Positions 20,584-26,216 of a DNA stretch of 32,000 nucleotides are shown here, piece after piece (position 1 is the stretch's first letter; the number at the start of each line of letters is the position of its first letter). Source of the stretch: Candidatus Saccharimonadota bacterium. GTDB taxonomy: Bacteria; Patescibacteriota; Patescibacteriia; 2-12-FULL-60-25. Location: the NCBI GenBank assembly GCA_963718585.1, contig OY970357.1, positions 210,001-242,000 of the forward strand. Direction: 5' to 3'. The position numbers and the translations under genes are program-made. Below the pieces are notes generated by a model, which saw nothing but the letters and a program-made list of their open reading frames with translations, searched no databases and had not been told where the DNA came from.

Positions 20584-21975
20584 ATGGATCGCACCCTCGC
20601 CTCCGCGTTCAAAGCCTACGATATCCGGGGCCTTTCTCCCGAAACCATTGATTCTGCCTTTGCGAGGCGGCTTGGGAAGGCCATCGCCTATCGCTATCAG
20701 CCGAAAAAGGTGCTTGTGGGCCGGGATATGCGGACGACCTCGTTCCCGCTTGAGGCCGCACTCATCGAGTCCCTGACCGCCTCCGGTGTGGATGTGGTCC
20801 GGATCGGTCTTTGTTCAACTCCGATGTTCAATATCCTCCTGGGACTGGCCAACCATGAGTACGATCTGGGGGTAATGGTCACGGCGTCGCATAATCCCGG
20901 CAAGTACAATGGGTTCAAACTGACGCTCGGAGATTGTTTGCCGGTCGGGGAAGGGAATGGCATGGAGGAGCTCCGGGACGCTTTTCTGGAAGAGAAGGAA
21001 TCCCCTTCGTCTCGGAGCGGCACCGCAGTCGATGACCCGGGGGCGATGGAGCGATACATCGAACACATCCTGTCGGTCGCGCGTTTACCCGCGAGCATGC
21101 CGAAGATCAAGGTCGCGATCGATGCAGGGAACGGCATGGCTGGAGCGATCCTGCCGCGTCTGTTGTCCAAGTGTCCGTGGATCGACGCGCTCCCGTTGTT
21201 CTTCGAACTGGATGGGACGTTCCCGAATCATGAAGCGAATCCCTTGAAGGCGGAGACACTGACCGATCTCAAAAAGACGGTGACGACCGAGCATTGTGCA
21301 CTGGGTGTGGCATTCGATGGTGATGCGGATCGCGTCGGTTTTGTGGACGAGACGGGGATGCAGATCCCCGGGGATCTCCTCACTGCTTTCTTTGCGCAGG
21401 AGATGCTCTCGGTGCATCCGGGCGGGTTGGTGCACTACGACGTTCGTTCATCATGGACCGTTCCCGAGGTCGTGGCCGAAGCGGGCGGGACGTCCGAGCC
21501 CTGCAAAGTCGGCCATGCGAACATCAAAAAGCTCATGCGGCAGGACGGGGCGATCTTCGCGGGCGAAGTGAGCATGCACTTCTATTTCAAGGAATTGTGG
21601 AACTGCGAATCCGGGGATCTTGCCATGCTCCTCATGCTCCGGCGACTCGCGCGGACGGGAAAGAACCTCTCCGAACTCTGGGCACCATTACGTCGTTATG
21701 CGCACTCGGATGAGATCAACTTCGAGGTCAGTGATAAGAAAGCGGTGATCGCGTTGCTCAAGGAGGTGTATGGATCCAAAGCGTCGTCCGTGAGTACGCT
21801 CGACGGGATCCGTCTCGAATTCCGCGACCCAAAGGACCCGGCCGGGGATTGGTGGTTCAATGTGCGTGCATCGAACACTGAACCGTTGTTGCGCTTGAAC
21901 GTCGAAGCGCGCACCGAGGACGTGATGCGTGCGCGCCTTAGCGAGTTGGAGGGGAAGATCCACCAAGCTGCGTGA
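20584..21975 (+). CDS. Phosphomannomutase/phosphoglucomutase family (alpha-D-phosphohexomutase)
   Basis: 463 aa. FKAYDIRG at the N-terminus, active-site loop TASHNPGKYNGFK and Mg site FDGDADR. Substrate specificity cannot be told from sequence alone. Confidence 0.9.
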   Translation: MDRTLASAFKAYDIRGLSPETIDSAFARRLGKAIAYRYQPKKVLVGRDMRTTSFPLEAALIESLTASGVDVVRIGLCSTPMFNILLGLANHEYDLGVMVTASHNPGKYNGFKLTLGDCLPVGEGNGMEELRDAFLEEKESPSSRSGTAVDDPGAMERYIEHILSVARLPASMPKIKVAIDAGNGMAGAILPRLLSKCPWIDALPLFFELDGTFPNHEANPLKAETLTDLKKTVTTEHCALGVAFDGDADRVGFVDETGMQIPGDLLTAFFAQEMLSVHPGGLVHYDVRSSWTVPEVVAEAGGTSEPCKVGHANIKKLMRQDGAIFAGEVSMHFYFKELWNCESGDLAMLLMLRRLARTGKNLSELWAPLRRYAHSDEINFEVSDKKAVIALLKEVYGSKASSVSTLDGIRLEFRDPKDPAGDWWFNVRASNTEPLLRLNVEARTEDVMRARLSELEGKIHQAA

Positions 21976-23185
21976 CCCAGGCGGTAAAATCATCGCCCTT
22001 GGCCTCGAAATTCTTCCAGAGCGAATAGCTGGGAGATGCGGTCGAGAGAAGACAGGCCTTCCCCGGGTCTGTTCTTTCAAACGCAAAGCGGACAGCTTCT
22101 TCCATGGATGAGGTCTTCAGGATGTTCAGGTCCGTGCACCCGGCGACGTCGAGCGCAGAGGCGATCCGCTCACCGCTCGGGGGGAAGAGAACAATATTTG
22201 TGATCTTTGCCTGCTTCACGGCTTGTGCGAGGAGCGAAAAATCGACACCGCGATCTTCGCCGCCGAGGAAGATCGTCCCTACGTTCCCGACGGTCTCGAT
22301 GGCGAACGCCGTGGATTCGGGCGCGGTCGAGATCGCATCATCCACGAAGCGGATACCGTGAAAGGTCCCGATGTCCGTGAGGCGATGGGGGAGCGGTTCA
22401 AAGTCTCTCACCGCTGCGGCCGCCGTGTCCGCGTCTACGCCAAGGGTCTGAACGACTGTATACGCCGCGCGGATGTTCAGGAGATTGTGCACGCCTTTGA
22501 GCTTGGCGTCTGCAGCGCTGAACGGAAGGTCGGAGACGAACGGAATGGTCTTCGAAGGACAAGATCCGGCCAGCGCCGCGATGCGCGCGTCATTCGGATT
22601 GTAGATGAAGAGATCGTCCGGCTTCGCGAACTGAATGATGTTCGCCTTGGCCGCGAAGTACGCGTCAAGGTCTCCGTGATAGGTCAGGTGTTCGGGGAAG
22701 AAGGTCGTGAACACCGCGATATGCGGACTGTACTCGATGTCTTCCAATTGATAACTCGAAAGTTCAAACACGAAGATCTCGTCCGGGGTCGGTGGGTCGA
22801 GGAAGCTATCGAGCGCGGCGTGACCGATGTTGCCGACGAGCCGCACCTTCTTCCCGGCGCGCGTGAGCATGGCGGCGATGAGCGCGGCGGTCGTGCTTTT
22901 GCCCTTGGACCCGGTCACACCGATGACGGGATCGGTCACGGTCTCAAAAAAGAGATTCGTGCCGGTCGTACAGGGTTTGGTCACAAGACGCCGCGGAATG
23001 CCGGGAGACCGGATGACCACGTCGGCATTTTCCTGTTTCGTGAGGTAATCCGGACCGTCTTTTTGGTCCGCGATCATGATCTGCGGATCCTTCAGCCGCG
23101 CACGCAAAAAGCGCTCGGTTGCGCGCCCTTCCATGCCATACCCGAGCAAGAGGATCCGTTTTCCTTCAAGGTCAGCGAGCTTCAT
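21938..23185 (-). CDS. murD: UDP-N-acetylmuramoyl-L-alanine--glutamate ligase (MurD-type Mur ligase)
   Basis: Start set at ATG 23185 (MKLADLEGKRILLLGYGMEGRA). P-loop GVTGSKGKSTT, and Mur ligase middle and C-terminal domains (HRLT...FVDDAISTAPEST). It overlaps the upstream gene's stop by 14 nt and the convergent mutase gene by 38 nt. Confidence 0.85.
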   Translation of the reverse strand: MKLADLEGKRILLLGYGMEGRATERFLRARLKDPQIMIADQKDGPDYLTKQENADVVIRSPGIPRRLVTKPCTTGTNLFFETVTDPVIGVTGSKGKSTTAALIAAMLTRAGKKVRLVGNIGHAALDSFLDPPTPDEIFVFELSSYQLEDIEYSPHIAVFTTFFPEHLTYHGDLDAYFAAKANIIQFAKPDDLFIYNPNDARIAALAGSCPSKTIPFVSDLPFSAADAKLKGVHNLLNIRAAYTVVQTLGVDADTAAAAVRDFEPLPHRLTDIGTFHGIRFVDDAISTAPESTAFAIETVGNVGTIFLGGEDRGVDFSLLAQAVKQAKITNIVLFPPSGERIASALDVAGCTDLNILKTSSMEEAVRFAFERTDPGKACLLSTASPSYSLWKNFEAKGDDFTAWVTQLGGSSPPTR

Positions 23186-24596
23186 AGAGTGGACGGAAGG
23201 GTTCAGGGAGAAGAGAAGTATCACCAAGCCGGAATGCTTCGGTGTCGAGGGCGTTCAACGCATTCTCATCCGGACGGGCTTCGTCGAGATACATCCGCAT
23301 GGACGCATCTTCCTCATAGGCGCCGTTGGCATGCGCACGTTCGAATGCGACGATCGTTTCTTCCGGTGCGCCGACGCATTCGAAGGGTTTGAAGTCTTTG
23401 ATGCCGAGGAGTTCGCGATACAACGGAAGGAGATCCGGATCCGCGAAGAGATCCTTGCCGAAGATGTCGACGACGGTCGCTTTCGGAAGGAAGGCGGCGA
23501 GCCCGGCGAATACGAATGCGCACTTGGGACAGGATCCGCACCAATACGCATGACCCTCACGTTGCGGAAGCGGTTTTTCGATCGCAAAGTTCCGGTTGCA
23601 GCTGGAGAACGCGTGGAAGTATGCAGGATGTTCTGCAAACCGACGCAGGACCTCCAGTTCGCTCATCGGGCGCAGGAGGGAGAAGGGGACGACATCCGGG
23701 GTGATGAATGTCCGCACGTGATCCTGGATCATCTTTTCTGCTTCCTCGGACTTGCTCCATTGATGGTTGATCTGTGCACCGAGATATTCGACGTTTCCGA
23801 CGTTCGCGCTTCGTTCATTCGCGAGCACGACATATTTGGACCGCGTCAGGATCGCGACGAGCGTCGCGGTCAGGGTATAGAGGAGGGTGATCGGGACGTG
23901 CCCATTCAAGACTTCGCCGGCTTTGGACCGTCGGACCATCTCTGGATCAAGAGTCCGTGTGATCCGGCGGACAGGCCAGCCGATGATCTGCTCGACCCGC
24001 TCTTGAACATCCGATGTATTCAACGTGAACGCATCTCCATCCATTGATGAACCCTTCAAGAGTTCAATGGCCACGATCGAGTCCTTCCCGCCACCGACGT
24101 TGGCGATCACCCGATCCGTGGTCGGGACCGTGCCCGGCGTCGGAGCAGGGGCTTCTGGATCCGTCGAAAGATCGACGAGACCCCGGAAATCGATCTGGTT
24201 CTGATAAAAGAATTCCCCCAGACCTTTGGTGTAGATGTCGTTCCAGAACGCGGCTTCATCGGCGGTCATTCCGTCTGCGATGATGGAGGGTGCACAGTGC
24301 ATCTTCCAATAGCTCATGCCGGCCGCAATATGGATCGCGCGTAAGCATGCGTCGCCCGCCGGACCTGCATCGGGCAGCGCCGTACGGAGTCCGTCATCCA
24401 AGGTCATCCGTTCTGTGAATGTTTCGGAAGCTCCGTCTTCGAATTCGACCATATACACGAACGACACCGTGCCGGTCGCCTGGTCCATGGATCGTTCGCC
24501 GACGCGAAATCGGGTCGCTTTCATCAGCCGCATCGTAGAGGAGAACGGCGGCCGTGGCAACCGTGATGGATTGACGGAGCGGGCGATTTCTGCCAT
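23172..24596 (-). CDS. PP-loop (N-type ATP pyrophosphatase-like) domain protein, translationally coupled to murD; candidate MurL-like enzyme (hypothesis)
   Basis: ORF 23172-24605 (TTG start); ATG 24596 is taken as the start but is uncertain. PP-loop-like NVGGGKDS. C-terminal WCGSCPKCAFVF Cys cluster. Its stop lies inside the murD 5' end. Confidence 0.7.
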   Translation of the reverse strand: MAEIARSVNPSRLPRPPFSSTMRLMKATRFRVGERSMDQATGTVSFVYMVEFEDGASETFTERMTLDDGLRTALPDAGPAGDACLRAIHIAAGMSYWKMHCAPSIIADGMTADEAAFWNDIYTKGLGEFFYQNQIDFRGLVDLSTDPEAPAPTPGTVPTTDRVIANVGGGKDSIVAIELLKGSSMDGDAFTLNTSDVQERVEQIIGWPVRRITRTLDPEMVRRSKAGEVLNGHVPITLLYTLTATLVAILTRSKYVVLANERSANVGNVEYLGAQINHQWSKSEEAEKMIQDHVRTFITPDVVPFSLLRPMSELEVLRRFAEHPAYFHAFSSCNRNFAIEKPLPQREGHAYWCGSCPKCAFVFAGLAAFLPKATVVDIFGKDLFADPDLLPLYRELLGIKDFKPFECVGAPEETIVAFERAHANGAYEEDASMRMYLDEARPDENALNALDTEAFRLGDTSLLPEPFRPLYEAR

Positions 24597-24630
24597 GTTG
24601 GACAAGGTCCTTTTCGCAAAGGAGGTGGAT

Positions 24631-25005
24631 ATGAAAGGGCATTGGCGTTTCCGCGCACCGTCGGCTGTCCGCGCCGCGTTGCGTGCCCATTCCCAGCAGG
24701 AAGGTCATGACCTGCCCGGTCTGTACATCTGTTTCTGGGATGCGTTGCCATCGGCGGACCGATACGTGGTCGCCTATCGAAAGATCGAGAAGAAACGACC
24801 CATCTCGGCGACGGCGGTCGTCAAGATCATGGACTTCAAGCGCTCGTCCTTCGAAACGGTCCTCGTCCGGACCTACCCGGCCCGTGCCGGAAAACATTTT
24901 GAATGGCGGGAGTACATCGAGGACCGTCGGGACGAGATCGCACTGTCCCTCGGGTTCATCGCCGAACGCGCACGACGCGACTCCGAAACTCCGGCCCCCG
25001 CATGA
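24631..25005 (+). CDS. Hypothetical protein (124 aa)
   Basis: ATG 24631 is preceded by a strong SD AAGGAGGTG (24619-24627). The gene ends inside a strong terminator. The longer ORF from 24316 is antisense to the PP-loop gene and is rejected. Confidence 0.6.
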   Translation: MKGHWRFRAPSAVRAALRAHSQQEGHDLPGLYICFWDALPSADRYVVAYRKIEKKRPISATAVVKIMDFKRSSFETVLVRTYPARAGKHFEWREYIEDRRDEIALSLGFIAERARRDSETPAPA

Positions 25006-25022
25006 CGGGGGCTTTTCTTTTT
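24994..25022 (+). terminator. Rho-independent terminator
   Basis: gcccccg (24994-25000) pairs with cgggggc (25006-25012), loop catga, followed by ttttcttttt. Confidence 0.8.
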
Positions 25023-25061
25023 CGCTTGTTGCCGTGCGGGGAATCAGATAGCCTATGTGCC

Positions 25062-26216
25062 ATGACCATCCTCTTGTTCCTCCTCGTCCTTTCGGTCCTC
25101 GTCTTGATCCACGAGCTCGGCCATTACCTCGCGGCACGCGCGTTCGGCGTCAAAGCCGAGGAATTCGGTTTCGGATTCCCGCCGCGCGCGATCGGGTGGG
25201 TGCGCGAACGCGGGAAGTGGAAACGCGTTTCGACGAGCGATCGGAAAAGCTACACCCACACGATCTGGTCCCTCAATTGGCTGCCATTCGGCGGCTTTGT
25301 GCGTTTGAAAGGTGAACAGCCGGACGGGCTCGAGGATGCGGATGCGATCCATGCCAAACCCGTGTGGCAGCGTGCGATCATCATCGTCGCGGGCGTCCTG
25401 ATGAATTGGGCGCTTGCGATCGTGCTTTTCACCATCATCTTCTCATCCGGGACCACGGCGATCCTCGAGGATCTGCCGCAGGGCGCACACGTATCGGATC
25501 AGCACATCCTCGTGACCCAGGTGTTGGACCATTCACCCGCGGCTCAGGCCGGCATCATGTCAGGTGATGTGATCACGCGCCTCGACGGTTCGGCGATCGC
25601 AGACGCGTCGTCGGCACGCGCCGGTATCCAGGCGCACGGGGAGACGCCGGTCACGCTTCTGGTCCGGCATGATGGGACGGAAACGCAGATGACCGTAACG
25701 CCGACGTTCATTCAGGAGATCGGCCGACCGGCGGTCGGCGTCGGGCTCGCGGATGCCGGGACCGTCTCCTTCCCGCTCACCGAAGCATTCGTTCAGGCCG
25801 TGCGCGTGACCGCATCGCTGACGGTCTCGATCGTGTATGCGCTGGGCGATATCGTGCGGCAACTCGCGACCGCGCATCAAGTCCCGCAGGACGTGTCCGG
25901 TCCGGTGGGGATCGCGGTCATGACCGGTCAGGTCGCGCGCGAGGGTTGGGCCGCCTTGCTCTCATTCGCGGCCATGCTCTCCGTGAATCTCGCGGTCATC
26001 AACTTCCTTCCCATTCCGGCGCTCGACGGCGGTCGCATCCTCTTTTTGATCATCGAAAAGATCCGCCGCCGTCCGGTGAGCCGTACGTTGGAGATCGGGA
26101 TCCACAATATCGCCTTCCTCCTCCTCATCATCCTGATCCTGCTCGTCACCGCACACGATCTGTCGCGCTACAGCGATGCGATCGTTGGCGGGATCAGAGG
26201 GGTGACCGGCCTCTAG
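25062..26216 (+). CDS. rseP: RIP metalloprotease RseP (site-2 protease, peptidase M50) with a PDZ domain
   Basis: Start at ATG 25062 (MTILLFLLVLSVLVLIHELGHYL). HELGH motif, PDZ-like VLDHSPAAQAGIMSGDVITRLDG and C-terminal LPIPALDGG motif. The promoter-like TTGTTG, 17-nt spacer, TAGCCT ends 7 nt before the ATG. Confidence 0.9.
   Translation: MTILLFLLVLSVLVLIHELGHYLAARAFGVKAEEFGFGFPPRAIGWVRERGKWKRVSTSDRKSYTHTIWSLNWLPFGGFVRLKGEQPDGLEDADAIHAKPVWQRAIIIVAGVLMNWALAIVLFTIIFSSGTTAILEDLPQGAHVSDQHILVTQVLDHSPAAQAGIMSGDVITRLDGSAIADASSARAGIQAHGETPVTLLVRHDGTETQMTVTPTFIQEIGRPAVGVGLADAGTVSFPLTEAFVQAVRVTASLTVSIVYALGDIVRQLATAHQVPQDVSGPVGIAVMTGQVAREGWAALLSFAAMLSVNLAVINFLPIPALDGGRILFLIIEKIRRRPVSRTLEIGIHNIAFLLLIILILLVTAHDLSRYSDAIVGGIRGVTGL

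Follow-up and report, generated by a model that had tools for sequence, protein, structure and literature searches.

In Xanthomonas oryzae, the D-glutamate (D-Glu) of the peptidoglycan stem peptide is obtained by a pathway described in 2017, in which the ligase MurD2 (XOO_1320) adds L-Glu and the epimerase MurL (XOO_1319) brings the residue to the D form (as reviewed in PMC8788868, PMC5808125). MurL needs ATP and Mg2+, releases AMP, works from L to D only and "lacks known conserved domains"; an adenylation of the alpha-carboxylate has been suggested for it, which is proposed and not proven even for the Xanthomonas enzyme (PMC8788868, PMC5808125). The pathway was also assayed in two actinomycetes, and the reviews confine it to a handful of proteobacterial and actinobacterial genera, where it is regarded as a narrow-spectrum antibiotic target (PMC8788868, PMC5808125). 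This article describes a murL-murD2 pair of the Patescibacteria, located in a window of 32,000 nucleotides (OY970357.1 positions 210,001-242,000, forward strand, assembly GCA_963718585.1). The genome, of an Uhrbacteria-like member of these tiny-genome bacteria (candidate phyla radiation), is a single closed contig of 1,084,458 bp rated 100% complete. Two long open reading frames (ORFs) fill the minus strand from 21938 to 24605, a Mur ligase downstream and a MurL homologue upstream, and we consider it highly probable that they form a two-gene murL-murD2 operon which gives stem-peptide D-Glu without free D-glutamate. An earlier note on this DNA had proposed a MurD2/MurL-type pair replacing glutamate racemase, and the comparisons presented here support that proposal, with an L-Glu specificity of the ligase that is predicted from its residues.

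The ligase is MurD-like, as the earlier note had held. It scores 262 bits against the MurD equivalog TIGR01087 (cut-off 212), compared with 326-368 bits for the family relatives that carry murI, and it lies far under the cut-offs for MurC, MurE and MurF; TIGR01087 does not separate MurD2 from MurD. It is the sole MurD over cut-off in the genome. The positions that bear on specificity were read from a phmmer alignment to E. coli MurD structures (chain numbering +1), and the window ligase has E, R, P and Y at E. coli D182, K348, A414 and L416. The corresponding residues of X. oryzae MurD2, with the numbering mapped via the review and not by alignment to MurD2 itself, are E197, R358, P433 and F435 (PMC8788868). 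The double mutant E197D/R358K of that enzyme becomes a D-Glu ligase, mutation of P433 and F435 leaves its stereospecificity unchanged, and the activity of MurD2 with D-Glu is very low (PMC8788868). More generally, small changes shift or broaden the chirality of MurD: the Streptococcus mutans enzyme slightly accepts L-Glu and the E. coli K319T variant accepts it as well (PMC8788868). Among the features of canonical MurD that surround D-Glu, Asp182 and Lys348 are replaced by E and R in the window ligase and the NDSKATN-type segment by DDAISTA; the stretch VDDAISTAPES, which had been noticed before in place of that segment, is indeed aligned by phmmer to E. coli INDSKATNVGS. In the organism's own family, canonical MurDs combine D and K with a segment that opens with ND... 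(signature D-K-A/S-F). Taken by its residues, the window MurD would be specific for L-Glu. No structure of MurD2 or MurL was found in the PDB.

The same positions were followed in a census of 135 Patescibacteria MurDs, of which 93 are MurL-linked (by genome or locus), 26 come from MurI genomes and 16 from genomes with neither. The K348 position is Arg in 88 of the 93 MurL-linked enzymes and in none of the 42 others, all of which have Lys. Pro occurs at the A414 position in 70/93 vs 0/42, Tyr at the L416 position in 66/93 vs 1/42 and Glu at the D182 position in 71/93 vs 13/42, and the combination E-R-P-Y is the most frequent MurL-linked signature (51/93). The K319 position is occupied by Ile in 68 of the 93 MurL-linked MurDs, for which the DDAIS form is typical, and ND opens the segment in all 42 of those that are not MurL-linked. 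Two candidate markers were rejected, namely K319 as a discriminator, a position that is already T, A or F in canonical MurDs of Patescibacteria, and Glu at D182 taken alone, given its presence in canonical enzymes.

In a maximum likelihood tree of 87 rows (IQ-TREE, LG+G4, with the Shimodaira-Hasegawa-like approximate likelihood ratio test, SH-aLRT), the window ligase belongs to a clade of 37 rows with 99% SH-aLRT support, in which every row is MurL-linked; "MurD2 clade" in this tree means this MurL-linked clade. At 60% identity, an Uhrbacteria metagenome-assembled genome (MAG) and a relative are the nearest rows. The MurDs of murI-bearing genomes, those of the organism's own family included, all fall outside, and the grouping with canonical D-Glu ligases that the earlier note had named as evidence to the contrary was not observed. 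A second and smaller clade of MurL-linked MurDs stands on the canonical side (L087-L089, L092, L094, L095 and L097, from genomes G010, G233, G063, G218, G087, G178 and G291). In six of its seven rows murD precedes murL, with the reverse order in G178, and its signatures are mixed (D-K-A-F, D-R-A-F, D-R-P-F or E-R-P-F). MurD may have been recruited to MurL independently in this clade, or the clade may be a transitional form of that recruitment.

The product of the upstream gene had been described as a 470-aa protein with a PP-loop-like motif and a cysteine cluster; both motifs are present, but the length is more likely about 450 aa. In alignments the homologues begin near ATG 24533 or 24524, which corresponds to 453 or 450 aa, and it is because of these starts and of a divergent plus-strand ORF with an AGGAGG site from 24631 that the shorter protein is regarded as the likely one. 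The relation to MurL, a point that had been left uncertain, is settled by the match to NF041275 (E 7.7e-99, 331 bits, model positions 7-418 of 447), a score that shows homology and not equivalog status under NCBI's rule. By the same model it is the single MurL of the genome, and from this homology the window protein would be expected to act as an epimerase. The sequence has no match in the local Pfam copy, which holds no MurL model, none to QueC (PF06508-type) in Pfam or NCBIfam, none to any tRNA-modifying family, which had been the alternative assignment considered, and no sequence-level match in the PDB. More than 7,900 clusters of homologues (90% identity) were found at E<=1e-5, two of them named as this epimerase by the Joint Genome Institute (JGI), and the best matches come from Uhrbacteria, Minisyncoccia, Roizmanbacteria, Saccharimonadia and others. 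All homologues are listed with the precomputed families PF26298 and PF26299, which the local Pfam copy does not contain. Across 60 aligned homologues the GGGKDS motif, residues W331, C332, C335, K337 and C338 of the WCGSCPKC cluster, C312 and C386 are invariant.

An AlphaFold2 model of MurL (60 homologues; window 23175-24533) has a predicted local distance difference test score (pLDDT) of 96.5 and a predicted template modelling score (pTM) of 0.95. Its best PDB matches by Foldseek are QueC, QatC and Cap9, followed by TtuA, LarE, NcsA and ThiI, all of them PP-loop ATP pyrophosphatases, and VIA-align gives Z 19.5 for QatC over 328 residues (model residues 5-418), Z 13-14 for QueC and Z 13.5 for Cap9. 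The GGGKDS motif belongs to the domain with which QueC and the other PP-loop ATPases superpose. The model thereby supports an ATP-to-AMP carboxylate activation by MurL in a QueC-like active site, and the QueC/QatC-like PP-loop fold would provide a structural basis for its AMP-forming chemistry. By analogy, the WCGSCPKC cluster together with C312 probably constitutes a QueC-like metal site, and a catalytic base of MurL can be tentatively proposed, the invariant C386 (in FECVG) being a candidate for the proton transfer. When the model is taken as a whole, with its N-terminal domain as well as the PP-loop core, the best superposition is with QatC from the anti-phage system QatABCD (9Y01_B), at 10% identity, which hints that MurL and QueC-like defence enzymes share a full-length architecture.

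According to the route proposed for the window organism, MurC would produce UDP-N-acetylmuramoyl-L-alanine (UDP-MurNAc-L-Ala), to which the MurD2-type ligase would add L-Glu at the expense of ATP, by way of the acyl-phosphate intermediate common to all Mur ligases. With its QueC-like PP-loop domain (GGGKDS), MurL would then turn ATP into AMP, the alpha-carboxylate of the terminal L-Glu most likely being adenylated in the process; the adenylation would acidify the C-alpha proton of this residue, L-Glu would be flipped to D-Glu, and MurE would extend the stem peptide. For the window MurL, an adenylate mechanism is what the modelled fold suggests. The two genes overlap by exactly 14 nt on the minus strand, as had been read from the sequence before, the murD2 ATG is not preceded by a recognizable Shine-Dalgarno sequence, and a translational coupling of murL and murD2 through the overlap is likely.

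The peptidoglycan genes of the genome include MurC (395 bits), MurE (305 bits), a MurF-like ligase, one alanine racemase (Alr) and MraY-type transferases, and therefore the stem peptide is made. The earlier note had pointed to murI, the presence of which would speak against the pair, and to a D-amino-acid transaminase as genes to look for, and neither family has a match: in the complete contig no murI (TIGR00067), no member of Asp_Glu_race at E<=1 and no class IV aminotransferase (Aminotran_4) were found. A tblastn search of the genome with MurI of G301, the only other species of the same genus, gave a best E of 1.5, and no murI remnants were found anywhere in the genome. It could be argued that the single alanine racemase homologue (one Ala_racemase_N protein, C1:349902-350582) is a broad-spectrum enzyme which also makes D-Glu, with the murL pair being redundant. 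However, this racemase is needed for D-Ala anyway, nothing suggests a broad specificity, and the loss of murI and of a canonical murD, together with the gain of the pair, would be left unexplained; we give this explanation almost no credence.

Among 24 other genomes of the same family, MurI occurs in 20 and MurL in two. G301 has MurI, no MurL and a canonical MurD (362 bits), and the order of its genes is clpB-htpX-lemA-PGM-murI-rseP-pheS, with flanks that are syntenic with the window at 62-90% protein identity. In relatives murI directly follows the PGM/PMM gene, and synteny with G301, G307 and G321 identifies rseP as the other border of the slot that is occupied by either murI or murL-murD2. 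Where G301 has murI, the slot of the window contains murD2 and murL on the opposite strand and a 124-aa orphan ORF. The canonical murD of G301 is located between a gene for a GT2 glycosyltransferase and a small abrB-like gene, beyond which come genes of hlyD/macB type. At that locus of the window genome the neighbours are adjacent, the abrB-like gene is retained and murD is absent, and no remnant of it was found; the window ligase is 27% identical to the MurD of G301. Compared with G301, both murI and murD have been lost from the window organism, and the locus of murI has acquired murL-murD2. This replacement of murI at the same locus, along with the loss of murD, is in our view the strongest comparative indication that the two genes together fulfil the function of murI and murD.

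Two further genomes extend this comparison. G321 has murL-murD2 in the same slot in forward orientation, with MurL 45% and MurD2 59% identical to those of the window, and G307, of the same family, has murI in the slot and a fused 815-aa murL-murD2 elsewhere. A separate canonical murD was not detected in G307 (L148, L150). G307 may be an intermediate stage of the swap. Because two genera (those of the window organism and of G321) have the cassette in opposite orientations, a third genus (G307) has both routes and G301 has murI, the PGM/PMM-rseP slot can be read as a recurrent exchange site within this family, at which murI gives way to a mobile murL-murD2 cassette and vice versa, the useless canonical murD being deleted afterwards, a reading to which we give even chances. 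One invasion of the slot with a later inversion and several invasions are both compatible with these data. If the slot is such a site, nature would provide in these genomes the "before, during and after" of a pathway being displaced by a non-orthologous one, and the L-Glu route would spread laterally as a unit in ultra-small bacteria.

The presence of both routes in G307 also favors a different function of the pair, in which the MurD2-type ligase would take L- and D-Glu and MurL would mainly correct products with mis-incorporated L-Glu. Such a role would agree with the ease with which small changes shift the chirality of MurD and with the slight acceptance of L-Glu by the S. mutans enzyme (PMC8788868). 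In the window genome, by contrast, a source of free D-Glu was not detected, so the D-Glu branch would be left without substrate, and the X. oryzae MurD2 hardly uses D-Glu; a corrector function is accordingly judged to be very improbable.

The distribution of the two routes in the phylum was evaluated in an even sample of 301 genomes, one of which (G154), marked unpublished, is MurI-positive and enters the MurI tallies only. MurL was detected in 41 genomes (~14%), and 95 (32%) pass the MurI cut-off, all of them MurL-negative; among the 41 with MurL there is no strong MurI match, five of them having only partial matches of 29-47 bits. The MurL route is therefore common in the phylum, though not the norm. 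The linkage of the two genes was examined in the best 80 MurL loci of the contig scan, which are from Patescibacteria or loosely labelled MAGs, and in 74 of these MurD is directly downstream of MurL or fused to it. Many loci (L008-L010, L013, L015 and others) are titled "uncultured Gammaproteobacteria bacterium" in third party annotation (TPA) assemblies and have a Patescibacteria-like murL-murD2, 40-46% identical to the query; the organism labels of those TPA MAG records look unreliable. Family f18 is an example of a group with neither MurI nor MurL, with MurDs of ~420 bits.

Several observations weigh against the operon as an L-Glu route. The NF041275 score is under the equivalog cut-off of 700 bits, for a model trained on Xanthomonadales only, and for the members from Patescibacteria the support consists of sequence comparison and a structure model. 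The assayed MurD2 enzymes of Xanthomonas, Micromonospora and Salinispora are outside the tree, in which MurL linkage stands in for MurD2 identity. Streptococci have genuine D-Glu ligases with Arg at the K348 position as well (3lk7), and Glu occurs at the D182 position in the 13 canonical Patescibacteria MurDs counted above, therefore single residues are not diagnostic. G307 has murI and the fused murL-murD2, so the two routes are not strictly exclusive. Finally, about one third of the sampled MurD-bearing genomes have neither MurI nor MurL, and so some Patescibacteria get D-Glu otherwise.

This last point bears on a further alternative, in which the window ligase would be an ordinary D-Glu-specific MurD that uses D-glutamate from a host or the environment, and the MurL homologue would have another role, such as a QueC-like carboxylate adenylation. 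Patescibacteria are episymbionts, many of those sampled have MurD with neither murI nor murL and thus an unexplained supply of D-Glu, the streptococcal enzymes indicate that Arg at K348 is compatible with D-Glu ligation, and the closest solved fold, QatC, is an enzyme of other function. Against these considerations, murI was replaced at its own locus and the canonical murD was lost too, which is hard to explain without functional equivalence; moreover, the linkage or fusion of MurD and MurL is near universal, the signature of the ligase fits the MurD2 pattern defined by mutagenesis, and the NF041275 match extends over the full length of MurL. We therefore consider a supply of external D-Glu to be unlikely, though a little less so than a corrector function, and retain the murL-murD2 operon as the most probable source of D-Glu in this organism.

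Table 1. Features of the murL-murD2 locus and its surroundings. Positions are those of the window, except in the last row.
Feature	Position	Strand	Remarks
murD2-type Mur ligase ORF	21938-23227	-	429 aa from TTG; likely start ATG 23185, giving 415 aa (MKLADLEGKRILLLGYG...)
murD2-type Mur ligase	21938..23185 (stop included)	-	TIGR01087; MurL-linked clade; E-R-P-Y signature
Glu165 (FFPEHL)	22691..22693	-	E. coli Asp182; X. oryzae MurD2 Glu197
Arg312 (GGEDRG)	22250..22252	-	E. coli Lys348; X. oryzae MurD2 Arg358
Pro385-Ser-Tyr387	22025..22033	-	E. coli Ala414/Leu416; X. oryzae MurD2 Pro433/Phe435; Tyr replaces Phe
VDDAISTAPES	22313..22345	-	Ile at the K319 position
murL ORF	23172-24605	-	477 aa from TTG; public gene call ATG 24596, 474 aa
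murL homologue	23172..24533 (stop included)	-	453 aa from ATG 24533; NF041275 match
GGGKDS, PP-loop-type motif	24078..24095	-	MurL residues 147-152 counted from M25
WCGSCPKC cysteine cluster	23520..23543	-	W331, C332, C335, K337, C338
C312 in SSCNRN	23589-23606	-	
murL/murD2 overlap, 14 nt	23172..23185	-	murL TGA 23174-23172 inside murD2 start, ATG 23185-23183
PGM/PMM-family phosphohexomutase (GlmM-like), flank	20584..21975	+	Pfam PGM_PMM I-IV; convergent with murD2
124-aa orphan ORF	24631..25005	+	Divergent from murL; perfect AGGAGG ribosome-binding site
RseP-type M50 site-2 protease with PDZ domain, flank	24903..26216	+	Pfam Peptidase_M50 and PDZ
85-aa AbrB/SpoVT-like ORF	G000:C1:475990-476224	-	Window genome (G000), outside the window; alone between GT2 gene and hlyD/macB-type genes, at the locus of murD in G301

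Regarding the neighbouring genes (Table 1), the PGM/PMM gene and murD2 share 38 nt at their 3' ends (21938-21975). This GlmM-like protein is under all NCBIfam equivalog cut-offs, with at best 426 bits for phosphomannomutase/phosphoglucomutase (cut-off 618) and next 346 bits for the archaeal-type GlmM (cut-off 439). On the other side, the true start of rseP is probably downstream of 24903. For the 124-aa ORF, neither Pfam nor NCBIfam gave a match; it is without a homologue in ~150 fetched loci, the syntenic regions of relatives included, and was rejected as a third component of the cassette on both grounds; it appears to have come with, or after, murL-murD2.

In the library that was searched, no paper was found that ties MurL or glutamate racemase to Patescibacteria; other mentions of "MurL" are mostly misspelt MurI. 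In the closed genome described here, no route to D-Glu other than this pair can be seen; about one seventh of the sampled genomes of the phylum carry MurL, and the restriction to a few genera stated in the reviews is contradicted by the phylum sample. Automatic pipelines that label these ligases "D-glutamate ligase" are probably in error, and metabolic reconstructions in which such genomes count as unable to make D-Glu are incomplete.

Compared with the enzymes of the QueC group, namely QueC (7-cyano-7-deazaguanine synthase; 3BL5, 2PG3) and the QueC-like defence proteins QatC (9Y01) and Cap9 (9NTO), MurL likewise has an SGGxDS-type loop and a C-terminal Cys cluster, and its model superposes on QatC over 328 residues and on QueC and Cap9 over the central PP-loop domain. 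The chemistry of QueC opens with the activation of a carboxylate by ATP. In contrast to this group, to which MurL is 10-16% identical, its substrate would be a nucleotide-linked dipeptide and the outcome an epimerization; as judged from the model, the likeness is a fold resemblance and not family membership. With the canonical route, consisting of MurI and an E. coli-type MurD (1UAG/2JFF), the window pair shares the Mur ligase fold, the ATP-binding P-loop (GSKGKST) and, in the relatives, the locus of murI. It differs from that route in the absence of murI, in the low identity of its ligase to the MurD of G301, in the residues at D182, K348, A414 and L416 and in the change of NDSKATN to DDAISTA.

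The closest described system is that of X. oryzae. Both have adjacent genes for a MurD-like ligase and a protein of ~450 aa, which in the window is homologous to the Xanthomonadales MurL model over its whole length, and both genomes are devoid of glutamate racemase and D-amino-acid aminotransferase. At the positions defined by mutagenesis the window ligase has the same E, R and P, the fourth residue being also aromatic, Y and not F. The differences are the phylum, the score of 331 vs 700 bits, the arrangement of murL then murD2 with a 14-nt overlap and the nature of the evidence, which here comes from sequence. While the MurD2/MurL pathway itself is known, the replacement of murI in situ and the deletion of the canonical murD are particular to the window genome, and this locus-for-locus replacement is a clean natural example of non-orthologous pathway displacement.

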